A stretch of 64,000 nucleotides of DNA from the IMG/VR virus record IMGVR_UViG_3300048893_000042, positions 1-64,000 of that record. One strand, written 5' to 3'. The DNA comes from a virus. Lineage: Duplodnaviria; Caudoviricetes. Made by a program: the position numbers and the translations under genes. The notes under the pieces were generated by a model. The model was not told the origin of the DNA. It did not search any database and saw only the letters and a program-made list of their open reading frames with translations. Shown here one piece after another: positions 37,670-45,307 of the stretch; position 1 is the first letter of the stretch, and every line of letters begins with the position of its first letter.

Positions 37670-39691
37670 TCAGTGAGCCCTCGTGATCCAGCTGCTGGTG
37701 CGGATCGACTGCTGCTGGCGCTGGACCACTGCAGCGGGGGGAACGCGTGCCGGCGCTGGGGGTGGTGGTACCTCATGGATCGCATGGTGGAGGCGGTCCA
37801 GGCGGAGGCGGCGCACGTGGTACAGGCCCCACAGTGCCGTGTAGGCGTACACCCGGGTGTCCAGGGCCTCGTTCGACTTGTGGTTGGAGATGGTCCAGCG
37901 GCGCACCATGGCACCGCCCCGGCGCTCCACCACCAGGCGCTCGGACGTCAGCTGGTCAAAATAGGCACTTGGCCGCCCGGTCGGGAAGTGGCAGAACCCT
38001 GGCCCGGGTTCCTTGATCAGCAGGCGCTGGCGCACCGCCTCCTTGGCGGCGCTCACCCCGATGATGATTGGTCGGTAGCCCGCCCTGTACCTCTTGTTCT
38101 TCTGGAGGGCAGGCCATATGGGAGACCACTGCTCGCGGTCACTGGACCCCTTGATTGCCCACACATTCCGGCCCGTGCGCTGGCGTGCGAAGTTGTACGC
38201 CTCCTGGGTGTTGTGCCCGCCGCTGTCCACGCACACCGCTCGGATGGACATCGGTCGTCCGTCCTGGCGGGTCATGGGCGTCAGCAGGTACTCATCCAGC
38301 TCATCCCACACCTTCGACTGGGCTGGGTCCCCCGTGAACACCTGGTAATCCAGTGACCAGCTCTCCTCCCCCAGGCCCCATCCAACGGCCTCCAGCTCGA
38401 TCCGGCCCTCCTGGCCGCCGGTCGTGCTCGGGTGGATGTCCACACCCACAGTGATGACCAGCACCTCATCGGGCACCTGCTCCCATGTCTCACGGCGCGC
38501 CATGAGGGTCGTGGGGTCTGCCTCCTTGGTGGCCTCCACCCGGTAGGGCAGTGCGAGCTGGGTGTTGTAGAAGGTCTGGGTCGATTCGATGTCCTTCTTG
38601 GCCTCCAGCCACGCCGCCGCCAGCTCACCCATGGTCAGGAGGGGACTGTACAGCTTGGACGCGGTGAAGCCTGCGTGCTGGTTGCTCACCGTCCTGGACC
38701 CACAGTGGACACAGGTGGCCCAGCCAACCTGGTTCTCAGTGTCCCACTCCCATGAGCGGGTCTGCCTGGGGTCCTGGCCCTCGCCGCAGCACACGAAGGT
38801 GCGGGTCTGGTGCCAGCGGATCGTGTGCAGGGCCTGGATGCGCTGCTGCTCGCTCCAGCCGGCCCCACAGTGCTCACAGAAGACCTGGGCCTGCTGGGAG
38901 TAGTGGATGCCACCCTTCTTGGGCCACTGAACATGGCGGAAGAACTCCAGGGTCTGTGACTCACCGCAGTGGGGGCACGTGACATAGGCCCGGCGCTGGT
39001 CACTTTCCTGATATGAGCGGTAGATGCGGCTTGTCTCTTCCCACGTGGGTGAGCAGGACCGTATGGACAGGCGGTTGCGGAAGGTGGATGACCGCTCCTC
39101 AGCCAGCTTGATCGGGTCGCCTTCCTTCGTCACCTCATACTTGTCCACCTCGTCCAGCAGCGTGATCCTGATCGCCCGCATGGCCAGGTTGGTCGGCGAG
39201 CCGGCGCTGGCTATGGCGAGGAAGCCGCCTGGGAAGGCCTTGAACCTGAGGGTGTCGTCGGTCCTGCGCGTCCTGCGGTCTCCCATCACCTCCCGCAGCA
39301 CAGGAGTGGCGGTGATCATCGGGGCCAGCCTCTCCTTGGAGAAGGCGTCCACCGCCTCGTCCTTGGGCAGGACCATCAGCATGGGGCAGGGGTCCAGGTG
39401 GGCCTGCCGCCCAATCACGTTGAGCAGCAGCTCTGTCTTCAGCAGCTGGGTGGCCACCATGACCGTGATGATCTGGACACCCGGCTCGGTCGTGGACATC
39501 ATCGGCCCACGGGCCACCTCATGCCGGCTGGTGCGCCACGCACCCCCGACAGCACCCGAGGACATCGACAGCCGGCGGTTGGTGTCAGCCCACTCAGGCA
39601 GCCGCATCTTGACCGGGGGTCGCAGGCTCCGCTGCACCGCCAGCGCGACCATGGCCCGCATCTCGGCCTGGGCCTCACGCGGCGTCCGCAT
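37670..39691 (-). CDS. terminase large subunit (lambda GpA family)
   Basis: VATQLLKTE, LDEVDKY, CSPT, CPHCG zinc motif, TVGVD, DSGG, NEALDTRVYA. Confidence 0.95.
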   Translation of the reverse strand: MRTPREAQAEMRAMVALAVQRSLRPPVKMRLPEWADTNRRLSMSSGAVGGAWRTSRHEVARGPMMSTTEPGVQIITVMVATQLLKTELLLNVIGRQAHLDPCPMLMVLPKDEAVDAFSKERLAPMITATPVLREVMGDRRTRRTDDTLRFKAFPGGFLAIASAGSPTNLAMRAIRITLLDEVDKYEVTKEGDPIKLAEERSSTFRNRLSIRSCSPTWEETSRIYRSYQESDQRRAYVTCPHCGESQTLEFFRHVQWPKKGGIHYSQQAQVFCEHCGAGWSEQQRIQALHTIRWHQTRTFVCCGEGQDPRQTRSWEWDTENQVGWATCVHCGSRTVSNQHAGFTASKLYSPLLTMGELAAAWLEAKKDIESTQTFYNTQLALPYRVEATKEADPTTLMARRETWEQVPDEVLVITVGVDIHPSTTGGQEGRIELEAVGWGLGEESWSLDYQVFTGDPAQSKVWDELDEYLLTPMTRQDGRPMSIRAVCVDSGGHNTQEAYNFARQRTGRNVWAIKGSSDREQWSPIWPALQKNKRYRAGYRPIIIGVSAAKEAVRQRLLIKEPGPGFCHFPTGRPSAYFDQLTSERLVVERRGGAMVRRWTISNHKSNEALDTRVYAYTALWGLYHVRRLRLDRLHHAIHEVPPPPAPARVPPAAVVQRQQQSIRTSSWITRAH

Positions 39692-40187
39692 AGTCCACCT
39701 GGTCGAGGGTGAGTTCGGTCAGGGCCTCACGGACCTCATCGGCGATCAGGCGCTCAACGGCACCCTCGTCCTGCAGGGCTGCGACCTCTGCGGCGATCCT
39801 GCCCGGCATGGCCAGCAGGCGCTGGCGAACATGGGCGAGCTGGTCTTCGAGGAGCACCTTGACCTCATCGACATAGACCGTCTGCCCCAGCTTCTGGGCC
39901 AGCTCGAACTCCTTGAGCTGCGCCGTGGCCAGGGATGAGCGCCGCCGGCCCTCTTCGGCCTCAGTCTTGGCAGGGTCTGCAGTGGCCCGGCCACGGCCCA
40001 GGGCCTCGCGCTCACGGACCCAGGCGAAGACCTGAGAGGTGTCGAGCTGGTACGAGATGCCCGGGCCACCCTTCCTCACGACAGGGCAGCCGGCGCGGAT
40101 GTAGTTCATCACAACGGTGTCGCTGACACCCAGGAGCTGGGCCAGCTCATCCTTCGTGACGATCTGACCTCCGTCAATCCTGGCCAT
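39675..40187 (-). CDS. terminase small subunit (Nu1-like)
   Basis: N-terminal wHTH VTKDELAQLLGVS......GCP; KLGQ.V.VDE; RLLAMPGR. Confidence 0.85.
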   Translation of the reverse strand: MARIDGGQIVTKDELAQLLGVSDTVVMNYIRAGCPVVRKGGPGISYQLDTSQVFAWVREREALGRGRATADPAKTEAEEGRRRSSLATAQLKEFELAQKLGQTVYVDEVKVLLEDQLAHVRQRLLAMPGRIAAEVAALQDEGAVERLIADEVREALTELTLDQVDYADAA

Positions 40188-40189
40188 CA

Positions 40190-41188
40190 GGGAGCCTTTT
40201 GACCACTTTTGAAATTTGGTTGCTGGTGTGGAGATGTGCTTCGCCTGACCCACATAGCGCCGCACCTGCAACAGGGACCCGCAGGTGGTGGGTGTCTCCC
40301 TGGGGGTGCGCAGGTCCGGGTCTACTCCAGCCCAACAGAATCACTCCTCAAGACTCAGCACAGGGGTGACAAGCACGCTACCCTATAGCAAACAACTACC
40401 CAAAGTAAAGCCCCCATTTTAGTTGATGATAAATATATCTCTCCCAACAACACCAGGTGTCTCTTGAGTATTGACCCGAGACATTACTTCACCTCATCAA
40501 CATACAGTCCTCAACTCATGTATCCGATCCCTCATCTTACCCTGTCAATCAAGCACTCGGCATACACCAGTCACCTGCTCAATACCCTTGTGACCTAGTT
40601 CTCCAACAACAACGGGGGAGGTCAGTCGCCTCTCCCTCAAACAACAACCGTGAGCATCACCAGCACGACACTCGTCATATACTCAACCTATCCAAGATGA
40701 GTATTGTTCTTGGGTGGAGGAAGACCTGACGAATACTCAACACTCAACACCGCACATCCAGGTGAGGTTATTGGTTATTGAAACGCTGCGCGCGATCGGG
40801 AAGCGCGCGCGCCGCGACCCGTAAGGAACCAATAACTAATAGCGCGGGCAATTTCCCCCGTCTCTTCAGTGGCTTAGTGGGTATTAGAAAGTTATTGCCC
40901 GCAGGCCCCACAATAACCACTTTACCTTTCCGCACATGGACTTACGCACCTGAAGTTTATAGCACCCCACTCGTGCTCTACCTCCGATAACCCAGTTATC
41001 ACGCCTTCCACGCTACATACAGGCCACAGTCCGCTACCTACACGATATTTTCGCAACCGGCAGTAGAACGTCCGCAGGACTCATCTCTACCTCCGCGCGA
41101 CGCAGCGAGGCCCTTGCCTTCCCGAGCAGTCGGCGCTAGGCTGCGTAGTGCGAGAACTACCCGTAGCGATGCTCATGGAGGGGACGCC
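40190..41188. other. 1-kb non-coding region, candidate cos site and divergent late/early control region
   Basis: No credible ORF; lower GC; C/A-skewed plus strand; several inverted repeats; minus-strand GGGTCCC near 40275-40281; minus-strand TTTACT-16-TATAGG at 40409-40382. Confidence 0.55.
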
Positions 41189-41710
41189 ATGATTTCAAGC
41201 ACTTACGACAGGCTCAGTGCACCAGCGAGGCTCTACCTCACCTCAAGCCTGGGTATTAGAAAGACGGCACGCAATATCGAATTCAATAACCTCAAGCCGG
41301 TGTCGGCGATGGTGGAGGAGGCGCACCTCGACCAGGTGGACATCGCCCTCATGCTCCTTCGCGCGAACTACCTCAGCGATGTCGAGCTGCTGGTGGGGCA
41401 CGCGGTCACGGTGTGCCCGCCCGGCGAGGCCAGGGGCCTCAGGGCTGAGACCCTCCAGGACCGTGCCGACTGGCTCGATGACTGGCTGCGCCGGCACCCT
41501 GACCCCTGGGAGATCGACAACTGGAGGGTCGTCCACCGTGCTCCCGACCCGCCGCCCAACGCCAACTCTGAGCAGGCCGCAGCCCACCGCCTGGTGCGCA
41601 TCGGCTACACCGTGCGGCAGCTGATCGTGCGTGGCTTCACCTATGAGGACATCGAGGTGTCGCAGCGCCACAGCTGGATGCGCCTCGCCCCGCAGCAGGT
41701 GCCGGCATGA
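41189..41710 (+). CDS. hypothetical protein
   Basis: RBS GGAGGG before ATG 41189; C-terminal G.TVRQL..RG.T..DI...W pattern. Confidence 0.65.
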   Translation: MISSTYDRLSAPARLYLTSSLGIRKTARNIEFNNLKPVSAMVEEAHLDQVDIALMLLRANYLSDVELLVGHAVTVCPPGEARGLRAETLQDRADWLDDWLRRHPDPWEIDNWRVVHRAPDPPPNANSEQAAAHRLVRIGYTVRQLIVRGFTYEDIEVSQRHSWMRLAPQQVPA

Positions 41711-42120
41711 TCACCCTCATTCCCGGACACATGTACAAGGTCCGCAGCTACCCCGCCCGCGAGGTGGATGGTCCTTTCCGCTTCCACGCCACCAATCCCA
41801 TCATCTTCCGCCACCGGGTCGGTGACGAGTACCCTGGCAACAGGGGTGACCCGTTCGACGGCACCACGACGCAGGAGCTGCTGCGTGTGATCATCGCCCG
41901 CACGAAGTACGTGGACCAGCAGCAGCCGGACCCGGCGAACGGCACCGTTCTGGGATGTGCCCGCGCAGCCATCGCTGCCCTGGAGACACGCGCTGCGCAG
42001 CGCCGGGGTCCAGGCTACCTCGCACTGTTCCGGCAGGAGCTCGCCCTCTGGGAGCTGGACATCGAGGACGCCGCACCGTGCACCACCTGCGGGCACATCT
42101 TCTGCGGGAGGCACAAGTGA
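41707..42120 (+). CDS. Tad1/Acb2-like helical-hairpin protein (candidate immune-signal sponge)
   Basis: G-x5-LL-x5-R-x12-N-x3-L-x5-A-x6-R-x3-R pattern (DGTTTQELLRVIIARTK...ANGTVL.....AIAALETRAAQR). Confidence 0.55.
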   Translation: MITLIPGHMYKVRSYPAREVDGPFRFHATNPIIFRHRVGDEYPGNRGDPFDGTTTQELLRVIIARTKYVDQQQPDPANGTVLGCARAAIAALETRAAQRRGPGYLALFRQELALWELDIEDAAPCTTCGHIFCGRHK

Positions 42121-43166
42121 GCGGCAGGGCGCACCCCCTCAAGCACCACCGTGAGACGATGCAGTGGCTCAAGGACTACGGTGCGACGGACGTCAGGTTC
42201 GACCCGACGCATGACCACCCGCGCCTCACGTACCACTTCCGGGGCACCTCGCGCACCCTGTCGCTCGCGCGCACCCCATCAGACGTCAACCACATGCGGG
42301 TGCTGAAGCGCCGGCTGCGTGCCGAGCTGGGTGACCCCGTCACCCGGCACCCCAGGGACAGGAGGAAGCTGGCCGACATGGATCCACAGGTCACCCCAGG
42401 CATCACTCATGACCACAACGGGTCGGTCGCCTACTACAACAACGGCAGCCTGCGGTTCTTCCCACCGGATGACTTCTTCGAGGTGGGCACGTCGGTGAGC
42501 ATCGAGCACCTGGGTCGTGACGCCCGGGGCATCGTCTGGGCTGTGCGGTCCGTCAAGACCCCAGCACCCGGCGAGAAGGCACCCACGGTGCGGCCTGATG
42601 GCTCAGCCAAGACGTTCGAGAAGCACCTGTCGGCCATGCACTCTGGCCTCGCGCTCGGTCTGGAGAAGCCCACGGGTCGCTCCCCGGCTGTGTGGGTGCA
42701 GGCAGACCCCACCACGTGGATGGTGCACTTCGACCCGGCCAACCGGCAGGTCGGCCCAAACATGGGTTCATCCGTCGCCCGCCGCAAGCCACCGCCACCA
42801 CAGCCGGCCCACCAGCCGGCACCAGCACCTGCCAACTGGGCTCATGGACCGGTCCACATCCCAAATGTCGGACCGTACCATCCAGGCAACCCCAGGCACT
42901 GCGTGAAGTGCGGGAAGGTCGGGAACTGGCATATGACGGAACTGTGCCCGGGGGAACCACCACCCCAGCACCCGGTATTCGGTGATCACTACGTCGCCAG
43001 CGAGGTCATCTCACGCCTGGGTGCCGAGGACGCGATGGAGTTCTGCCTGGACCTCATCGCCGACCTGGAGGCCCTGGGCACCCACCACCTGATCCTCGAC
43101 AAGGCCACCCGCGAGCGGGCCTTCAGCCCGGTCGGGAAGGTCATCCGCCGGAGGCCACGGGCATGA
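42117..43166 (+). CDS. multidomain protein with N-terminal HicA-like domain
   Basis: GTG start overlapping the upstream stop; HPRLTYHF...LSLARTPSD....LKRRL; Pro-rich linker; CVKC..H..C. Confidence 0.55.
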   Translation: MSGRAHPLKHHRETMQWLKDYGATDVRFDPTHDHPRLTYHFRGTSRTLSLARTPSDVNHMRVLKRRLRAELGDPVTRHPRDRRKLADMDPQVTPGITHDHNGSVAYYNNGSLRFFPPDDFFEVGTSVSIEHLGRDARGIVWAVRSVKTPAPGEKAPTVRPDGSAKTFEKHLSAMHSGLALGLEKPTGRSPAVWVQADPTTWMVHFDPANRQVGPNMGSSVARRKPPPPQPAHQPAPAPANWAHGPVHIPNVGPYHPGNPRHCVKCGKVGNWHMTELCPGEPPPQHPVFGDHYVASEVISRLGAEDAMEFCLDLIADLEALGTHHLILDKATRERAFSPVGKVIRRRPRA

Positions 43167-43333
43167 CACTGGAGCAGGTGCGCTGTGCCATGGCCAAGAC
43201 CGCCCGCGACCCCAGCCGGCCGCAGCTGGCTCAGGGGCTGGACCTGCGCACCGACCGCTGCCAGGCCTACCTCAGCGTCCTCAGGCACAGCACACGCTGC
43301 TGGGACGAGTTCCACATCGACAGGTGGAAGTGA
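43163..43333 (+). CDS. 56-aa hypothetical protein
   Basis: Manual translation; ATGA and TGATG overlaps. Confidence 0.5.
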   Translation: MTLEQVRCAMAKTARDPSRPQLAQGLDLRTDRCQAYLSVLRHSTRCWDEFHIDRWK

Positions 43334-43698
43334 TGAGGCGCTGCTGGGAGGTGGTGCGGGCGCTGCTGCTCGCCCACGAGCACCCACCCTTCAGGCCGGC
43401 GGACGTGGCCCGCAGCCTTGAGCTGCCGGAGCAGCTGGTCAAGGAGAACATGCTCATGCTCGATGGCTCCGGCCTCGTGGAGCCCAACCTGCTGCTAACC
43501 ACGTCTGAGGGTGGAAGCCGCGAGCCGGTGGAGGCCTTCGGCACCCTGACGTGGCGAGGCATGGAGCTGCTGGACATAATCCGCCATCCCACCCACTGGG
43601 AGCGCGTCGTCCAGGCCTCACTCCACCACGGGGTGCCCCTCACCGAGGAGACCATCAGGCTGATCGCCCACAGCTCATTCATGAGGAGGCTCGATTGA
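43333..43698 (+). CDS. DUF2513-like winged-helix protein
   Basis: MRRCWEVVRALLL...LTWRGMELLDIIR....W. Confidence 0.7.
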   Translation: MRRCWEVVRALLLAHEHPPFRPADVARSLELPEQLVKENMLMLDGSGLVEPNLLLTTSEGGSREPVEAFGTLTWRGMELLDIIRHPTHWERVVQASLHHGVPLTEETIRLIAHSSFMRRLD

Positions 43699-44121: not shown

Positions 44122-44361
44122 ATGTCACCCAAGGTCGCAGCCGGTGCCGGTGCAGCCGGCGCATCGTCACCCCTGTCCATCATCGTCATCTGGCTGATTG
44201 GCCTGACCCACGTCACCCTGCCGCCAGAGGTGGCCGTGGCCATCGGGTCGCTGGTGGCCGCCGGGGCCTCGCTGCTGGCAGGCTACCTGGTGCCCCATGA
44301 CCCAACCACCGCTCGCCTGATCGCTGAGGATGCAGCCAAGAATGGCCAGGGCAATGTTTGA
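44122..44361 (+). CDS. two-TM holin-like membrane protein
   Basis: KVAAG..AG....IIVIWL....LPPEVAVAI..L......GYLVP. Confidence 0.55.
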   Translation: MSPKVAAGAGAAGASSPLSIIVIWLIGLTHVTLPPEVAVAIGSLVAAGASLLAGYLVPHDPTTARLIAEDAAKNGQGNV

Positions 44362-45307
44362 GACCACAACCATCGACACTGAGACCACGGGCATGGAGCC
44401 TCATGACGTGGTCATCGAGATGGCCGCAGTCCGCCGTGACTGGCACTACCACTTCATGGTCAACCCGGGTGACGTGCCCGTGGTCCCTGAGGCCCGGGCG
44501 GCACACCACATCACCGATGCTGAGCTGGCCGTCTGTGCCACCGCAGAGGTGTGGCTGCCGACCGTCATGGAGCTGACCGGCAGGCCAGACCATGTGCTAG
44601 TGTTCCACAACGCGGAGTTCGACACCCGCATGATCCAGCAGACCTGGCCGCAGATCGGTGGCGCACCACACATCTGCACCTACCGCTGCTCGCTCCAGCT
44701 CTGGCCCGACGCACCCAGCCACTCGAACCAGGTGCTGCGCTACTGGCTGAGCCTCCACGTGGAGAAGACCCGCCTCCACCCACACCGCGCCCTGCCCGAC
44801 GCCCTGGTGACTCACGCCCTCGTGATGCGCATGATCGAGGACCTAGTGTATGGGCGGAACGAGCACGTCCGGCTGCCCGATCTCCCAGCGGAGGAGCTGC
44901 GGGACGCGGCCATAGAACGCCTCGTGCACCTTACCACAGCCCCGGTCGTCCTCCACCGCGTCCGCTTCGGGAAGCACCAGGGTCTGCTCTGGAAGGATGT
45001 GCCCCGCGACTACCTCCAGTGGATCATCCGCCAGGCGGACTTCGACCGTGACGTGCTCCACACAGCCCGCACCCTGATTGGCAGCCCCCCGGCCACGCCA
45101 GCGGGGGAGCACGCATGGCTGGGTCAGCGGTTCTGCCTGGTCATGAACCTGGAACAGGATGGGTTCGGGTCCGAGCTGGGTGACTACACCGCCCACCAGG
45201 GTCAGGTCGTCACCGTCACCCGCGAGCTGCCCGACAGCATGGTGGCTGTGCAGGCCTCAGACGGCTGGGTGGGCAACGTGTTCAAGAATGAGCTGAGGGC
45301 GCCATGA
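44354..45307 (+). CDS. DEDDh 3'-5' exonuclease (ExoX-like) with DUF3820-like domain
   Basis: IDTETTG, HNAEFD, HRALPDA; FGKHQG..WKDVPRDYLQW. Confidence 0.85.
   Translation: MFETTTIDTETTGMEPHDVVIEMAAVRRDWHYHFMVNPGDVPVVPEARAAHHITDAELAVCATAEVWLPTVMELTGRPDHVLVFHNAEFDTRMIQQTWPQIGGAPHICTYRCSLQLWPDAPSHSNQVLRYWLSLHVEKTRLHPHRALPDALVTHALVMRMIEDLVYGRNEHVRLPDLPAEELRDAAIERLVHLTTAPVVLHRVRFGKHQGLLWKDVPRDYLQWIIRQADFDRDVLHTARTLIGSPPATPAGEHAWLGQRFCLVMNLEQDGFGSELGDYTAHQGQVVTVTRELPDSMVAVQASDGWVGNVFKNELRAP

Follow-up and report, generated by a model that had tools for sequence, protein, structure and literature searches.

Phage sponge proteins, which bind up bacterial alarm molecules, have made clear how signaling-based immunity is overcome. 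They have also served to identify the signals chemically: Tad1 (Thoeris anti-defense 1) reportedly revealed gcADPR, and a Tad2 is said to have revealed His-ADPR. For Tad1, the references used here are the structures of CbTad1 (PDB 7UAV, 7UAW, 8SMD, and 8KBE) and CmTad1 (8KBB), together with PHROG 2428 and the NCBI name DUF7681. When cbTad1 binds 1''-2' gcADPR, residues F82 and R109 stack on the adenine and N92 reads its Hoogsteen edge; the diphosphate is contacted by R57, R109, and R113 and the ribose hydroxyls by H29, G55, R78, and N122, while F87 and G120 also touch the ligand (10.1101/2022.05.03.490397). Binding is lost in the Tad1 mutants R109A/R113A and F82A/N92A (10.1101/2023.11.15.567273). 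Sponges joined to other domains have been described (10.1101/2025.07.12.664507), signal-degrading phage enzymes are also known, and a 2025 survey gathered 1,587 Tad1 homologs from IMG/VR with HHpred (PMC12393519). The other described system to be considered, Acb2 (anti-CBASS 2), is by published description shorter and all-helical, without a beta-sheet domain. Here, a small phage protein that an earlier note, made from the DNA letters, had proposed as a Tad1/Acb2-family immune-signal sponge is compared with these systems.

Gene and Genomic Setting

The window, that is, the whole 64,000-nucleotide stretch of DNA that was analyzed, comes from a 77,381-base IMG/VR virus genome from a soil metagenome that is rated 100% complete. 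A complete ATG-initiated open reading frame at 41707-42120 on the + strand encodes 137 amino acids, and the peptide quoted in the earlier note corresponds to residues 51-99 of its translation. The reading frame, the family to which it belongs, and an AF2 model together define its product as a Tad1-like protein with a putative C-terminal zinc knuckle. The gene is the second in a rightward string that diverges from the terminase genes on the - strand (small subunit, 39675-40271; large subunit, 37670-39691), the two being separated by an intergenic gap of ~850 bp (40272-41113) with a G+C of 0.59 versus ~0.65. Upstream, a gene at 41114-41710 (+) encodes a protein of up to 198 aa, and downstream, a gene at 42117-43166 (+) encodes one of ~349 aa from a GTG at 42117; neither product has a Pfam or PHROG match. 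The start of the Tad1-like gene overlaps the stop of the upstream gene in an ATGA (41707-41710), and the GTG of the downstream gene overlaps the TGA of the Tad1-like gene in a GTGA (42117-42120). These overlaps of starts and stops suggest that the three successive genes are translationally coupled. The gene had previously been assigned to the first early operon of the phage; what can be retained of this is its place as the second gene of a rightward, apparently coupled string, whereas no sigma-70 consensus promoter was found in the gap at 40272-41113 and a search for sigma-70 promoters and terminators belonging to the string likewise found none.

Several other members of this string can be described. 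In the ~349-aa downstream protein (42117-43166, +), a CxxC...H....C motif comes after a proline-rich stretch (HCVKCGKVGNWHMTELC), giving the string another small element of zinc-binding-like character. Three genes 3' of the Tad1-like gene, positions 43324-43698 (+) of the window encode a DUF2513 protein (PF10711, E 2e-7; phrog_585). A 79-aa membrane-like reading frame at 44122-44361 (+) matches a holin PHROG (phrog_9284, E 6e-8); it has no recognizable lysis genes beside it and adjoins an RNase_T/DnaQ-type exonuclease (44330-45307, +; phrog_192, DNA polymerase exonuclease subunit), in which residues 208-235 form a weak QSregVF_b segment. Additionally, Tad2 (PF11195) is absent from this phage.

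Domain Layout and Conserved Residues

The protein begins with a beta-sheet domain (residues 1-53; 41707-41865, +) that was delimited by DSSP assignment on the model, conservation, and profile alignment with hhalign. This domain contains a conserved PGH-x-Y turn that includes H8, the segment F34-x-K36-R37-x-G39, and the loop Y42-P43-G44-N45, and its motifs line up in hhalign with the 'APHxF' and 'FQEGP' motifs of Tad1. It is followed by a helical hairpin (residues 54-99; 41866-42003, +), equivalent by sequence and structure matches to alpha1-alpha2 of Tad1, which bears R65, Y68, N78, R95, and R99. A third helix (residues 102-114; 42010-42048, +), identified from the AF2 model and the alignment, varies in length across the family, with alignment columns 108-116 gapped in most members. 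The C-terminal tail carries C125-x2-C128-G-H130-x2-C133 (42079-42105, +), defined by conservation and motif counts.

In an alignment of 126 family members, the near-invariant positions of the N-terminal half are P6, G7, H8, Y10, F34, K36, R37, G39, Y42, P43, G44, and N45, those of the hairpin are G52, T53, Q56, E57, R60, I63, R65, Y68, Q72, N78, R86, E93, R95, A96, and A97, and those of the tail are E120, C125, C128, G129, H130, and C133. The hairpin spacing that had been put forward as characteristic of Tad1 (G-x5-LL-x5-R-x12/13-N-x3-L-x5-A-x6-R-x3-R) is present on the translation as G52-x5-L58L59-x5-R65-x12-N78-x3-L82-x5-A88-x6-R95-x3-R99, i.e., with the shorter of the two central intervals, and it matches real Tad1 sequences. 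Because its positions are among the most conserved in the 126-member alignment (G52, 100%; R65, 99%; N78, 90%; R95, 98%), the motif goes beyond chance. The CxxC-x-H-x2-C tail reported alongside it is equally real, and its residues are retained in nearly all members (C125, 98%; C128, 97%; H130, 100%; C133, 89%). Moreover, the exact Cys2-His-Cys motif occurs in 103 of the 126 family members versus 0 of 51 Tad1 homologs. With these four conserved putative metal ligands, the tail is a candidate zinc knuckle. Zinc-finger Pfam matches on the tail are weak and below threshold, and it should be noted that Pfam and PDB sequence searches with the single sequence returned only noise (zinc-finger tails, ArtA, and hantavirus nucleocapsid).

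Homology to Tad1

When used alone, the window protein matched phrog_2428 weakly (E 0.0097) over residues 50-100. This profile is the Tad1 PHROG, and the CmTad1 hairpin matches it at 2e-23 over the same profile positions (70-121). A total of 82 of the 126 family members matched phrog_2428 at E<=0.01 (best E 1.9e-8) with no competing PHROG, and this profile, run over all six frames of the entire 77-kb phage, gave a sole match at 41854-42006 (+), inside the reading frame at 41707-42120. Similarly, a search of the family profile against PDB sequences returned CmTad1 (8KBB) as the best match (E 0.033), with the hairpin aligned to CmTad1 residues 71-123. In a comparison of profiles by hhalign, the family aligned with 51 Tad1 homologs at a probability of 88% (E 3e-6, score 40.5, 89 columns), and this alignment spans residues 2-102 against residues 23-114 of CmTad1 (P0156). 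Reversed alignments, by comparison, scored 14-15, and 20 column shuffles scored at most 25.6 over 16 columns only. Reciprocal HMM searches (E<=0.01) detected 50 of the 51 Tad1 homologs and 55 of the 126 family members. The Pfam model for this hairpin (PF24729, Acb2_Tad1_hairpin) behaved otherwise: it matches the CmTad1 hairpin, but none of the 126 members was listed even at E<=10, and a six-frame scan of the whole phage with it gave no match.

A structural model generated with AF2 from 126 sequences has a pLDDT of 95 and a pTM of 0.86; it supersedes a poor first model that was built from 6 sequences (pLDDT 64). [quoted passage not shown] Comparison with the PDB by Foldseek, which the earlier note had put forward for both Tad1 and Acb2, gave Tad1 chains as all of the best 10 matches (probability 0.93-0.99, TM 0.45-0.56, E 0.04-0.35), with the hairpin present in the model, while no Acb2 chain was among the PDB matches listed. 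Superposition on Tad1 with VIA-align gave Z of 6.2-6.9 and an rmsd of 3.5-4.1 A over 91-95 residues, pairing residues 1-104 of the model with residues 15-118 of the chain; these Z scores are all below 8 and are not decisive alone. When the model was compared exhaustively with 48,161 chains, the first ranks again went to CbTad1 (Z 6.5) and CmTad1 (Z 6.3), which alone among the top matches covered both sheet and hairpin; the matches that followed closely, at Z up to 6.2, involved helices only, within residues 54-137.

Taken together, sequence and structure comparisons give good support to remote homology between this protein and Tad1, which we consider very probable. Like Tad1, the protein is of similar size, places a long two-helix hairpin after an antiparallel sheet, and is encoded by a single small phage-borne gene. 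Its helical hairpin is also similar to that of Acb2, and its model matches BFVD proteins named 'Acb2/Tad1 hairpin domain-containing' (e.g., rmsd 1.1 A over 51 residues, probability 0.97) as well as an ESM Atlas cluster with PF24729 in 30% of its members. The window protein nevertheless differs from the all-helical Acb2 in having a sheet domain, which aligns with that of Tad1. The family assignment proposed earlier is thus borne out in part: fold, profile-profile homology, PHROG matches, and conserved pocket residues support a relationship to Tad1, which the protein resembles more than it does Acb2.

Putative Ligand Pocket and C-Terminal Tail

By alignment, 7 of the 11 cbTad1 residues that contact gcADPR and make up its gcADPR/cyclic-dinucleotide pocket have equivalents in the window protein. 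H29 corresponds to H8 (99% of the family), G55 to G39 (97%), R78 to R65 (99%), F82 to Y68 (96%), N92 to N78 (90%), and R109 to R95 (98%); R113 corresponds to R99, which is arginine in the window protein and is so in 54% of the family. Of the remainder, R57 falls on N45 and thus has no like-for-like match, F87 has no clear partner, and the lid residues G120 and N122 have no counterpart. Tad1 has four pocket-forming loops. Three of these (beta4-alpha1, alpha1-alpha2, and the C-terminal tail) coincide with the most conserved parts of the family, while the fourth, beta2-beta3, is variable in the family and conserved in Tad1.

The protein also departs from Tad1. The flexible C-terminal lid that covers the ligand in Tad1 (residues 116-122, 'RGVEGT') is absent, the hhalign alignment stops before the tail, and in place of the lid the protein has the helix at 102-114 and the candidate knuckle, both of which are additions relative to Tad1. 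The cyclic-trinucleotide residues of CmTad1, R88 and T95, fall on P76 and G83, and both of these columns are unconserved in the family. Further, the conserved basic and polar residues K36, R37, N45, Q56, R60, Q72, and R86 are specific to the family and lack a Tad1 counterpart. The CmTad1 interface residues Q98, E99, M102, W103, and K106 align with R86, A87, A90, A91, and T94, and the window protein does not preserve the residues of the CmTad1 hexamer interface (A90, A91). Given the failure to reach the PF24729 threshold, the missing lid, the missing cyclic-trinucleotide site, and the added knuckle, the family is a divergent sister group of Tad1 and not a canonical member of it; the membership claimed at the outset is therefore to be read as remote homology.

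Family Distribution and Genomic Neighbors

A profile seeded by five homologs at 40-51% identity retrieved 971 representative proteins (50%-identity clusters; E<=1e-3) from 1.84 billion, with 80 of them below 1e-30, and most of these representatives are 120-150 aa in length and match end to end. The ESM Atlas clusters nearest to the family are 88-96% viral, and the family is almost wholly viral. No match was obtained when four different family members were compared by tblastn with 50,697 GenBank phage genomes. A search of IMG/VR for loci with the window protein alone found nothing, while the same search with a relative (P0035) recovered 13 IMG/VR loci and, among species genomes, one match only, on a 4.5-kb contig of a Saccharibacteria MAG. 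Thus, with no match among GenBank phages and a single contig among species genomes, the family appears to reside in uncultured phages. The G+C content of the IMG/VR loci that carry relatives ranges from 34% to 59%, indicating diverse hosts. One of these relatives (locus L011, IMGVR_UViG_3300038463_000730) is located on a viral contig of 434,688 bases, a length that points either to a jumbo phage or to faulty binning of the record.

A neighbor gene conserved across 17 loci (12 non-duplicate) was sought and none was found; as a result, the Tad1-like gene behaves as a free-standing accessory gene. Among 77 neighboring reading frames at the 12 loci, Pfam matches included thymidylate synthase (2), DNA polymerase A (2), 5-hmdU DNA kinase, DHFR, NUDIX, a MazG-like PRA-PH, nucleoside deoxyribosyltransferase, and UDG; RecA was also recorded next to family members. 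The recognizable neighbors in other phages are therefore chiefly genes of nucleotide metabolism and replication, which fits placement in an early or middle region.

Some relatives carry additional domains. In two of them (P0120 and P0153), the Tad1-like domain with its knuckle precedes a C-terminally fused NUDIX hydrolase that has a MutT-like NUDIX box; NUDIX is found in 2 of the 24 extended forms (at least 165 aa) among the 155 members retrieved, and a further search for longer variants yielded nothing of use. The fusion might serve to capture and cleave a ligand, or it might tie the domain to nucleotide metabolism. In being joined to a second nucleotide-directed domain, these relatives resemble the sponge fusions already described (10.1101/2025.07.12.664507); the window protein is unfused. 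In two other relatives (P0126 and P0152), the Tad1-like domain has CxxC...CxxC zinc-ribbon-like segments inserted in its variable beta2-beta3 loop, and several further relatives have Cys-rich C-terminal extensions; an ESM Atlas look-up of one C-terminal extension (that of P0100) gave a chance-level score. A description of a Tad1-like protein fused to NUDIX, or of a Tad1 branch with a zinc knuckle, was not found in the literature searched. The branch may, however, already lie inside the 2025 survey's set of 1,587 homologs (PMC12393519).

Proposed Function and Alternative Explanations

An immune-signal sponge with altered specificity is considered the most likely function of the protein, a reading that we hold with somewhat better than even confidence because the contacts to adenine and diphosphate are retained, the protein is small, the family is viral, and the gene behaves as an accessory gene. 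By analogy with Tad1, whose homo-oligomers range from dimer to hexamer, we infer that the window protein would form homo-oligomers and that the interfaces between subunits would hold pockets able to trap a nucleotide immune signal containing adenine, in the simplest case an ADP-ribose derivative made by a TIR protein, such that the host effector would never be switched on. In such a pocket, Y68 and R95 would be the equivalents of the adenine-stacking residues of Tad1 and N78 the reader of the Hoogsteen edge, while H8, G39, and R65, by their match to Tad1, would hold the ribose hydroxyls and R95 and R99 the diphosphate. The cyclic-trinucleotide site of Tad1 is absent. The putative knuckle might give the pocket a rigid lid or wall and thereby change its specificity. 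Because the protein has substitutes for the lid and for one arginine, as well as additional basic residues, it may well bind a different ligand from canonical Tad1. The NUDIX fusion in two members fits a nucleotide ligand, and the lack of a conserved neighbor is as expected of an accessory gene.

The genes that surround the family keep a metabolic role in play, in which the protein would be a nucleotide-binding accessory to phage nucleotide metabolism that has the Tad1 fold and no part in anti-defense, for example by sensing a nucleotide or presenting it to pyrophosphohydrolases of the NUDIX or MazG type in phages whose dNTP pools are remodeled. The MutT-like NUDIX domain at the C-terminus of two members and the nucleotide-metabolism genes among the neighboring reading frames fit this role as well as they fit anti-defense. 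Small phage anti-defense genes, however, commonly sit among replication and nucleotide genes, no neighbor is conserved across loci such that a fixed enzymatic partner is lacking, NUDIX is limited to those 2 of the 24 extended forms, and the conserved residues coincide with the signal-binding pocket of Tad1, all of which makes a purely metabolic role unlikely. That last coincidence also bears on the many conserved arginines and lysines (K36, R37, R60, R65, R86, and R95), which, along with the conserved Cys2-His-Cys tail and the additional zinc ribbons inserted in or appended to some relatives, would suit a zinc-knuckle binder of nucleic acid or protein, such as a small early regulator or a host-protein inhibitor, that uses the Tad1-like scaffold for interaction instead of small-molecule capture. 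We regard such a binder as quite improbable, as conserved basic residues match ligand contacts of Tad1, no DNA-binding family or fold outscores Tad1, and the tail yields zinc-finger matches below threshold only.

It is very improbable that the likeness to Tad1 is itself convergent or due to chance, i.e., the product of a common sheet-plus-hairpin arrangement in a protein of unrelated function. Tad1 was ranked first by independent sequence and structure methods, controls scored far lower, the HMMs of each family detect members of the other, and the columns that match are functional residues of Tad1; set against this are structural Z scores below 8, a sequence identity of 13-17%, an unmatched Pfam model, and an hhalign probability of 88% and not above 95%. 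The sponge with altered specificity is the preferred reading.

Possible Implications for Phage Anti-Defense

A more far-reaching version of the sponge reading can be formulated, in which the window protein would found a large branch within the Tad1 superfamily that has a zinc lid and is known so far from uncultured phages only, with a rebuilt pocket that traps an immune signal bound by no known sponge and with NUDIX-fused relatives that couple capture to hydrolysis. We advance this version tentatively and think it rather doubtful as a whole; if true, the protein could be used as a molecular trap for a new bacterial signaling molecule. Should the protein be a plain gcADPR sponge, it would represent a modest extension of the Tad1 family. 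The Tad1-like branch comprises about a thousand sequence clusters, differs in its lid, lacks the trinucleotide site, and occasionally carries a NUDIX fusion. It thereby broadens the range known for the Tad1 fold and supplies candidates whose ligand specificity may be new, in a branch that standard Pfam annotation leaves unnamed.
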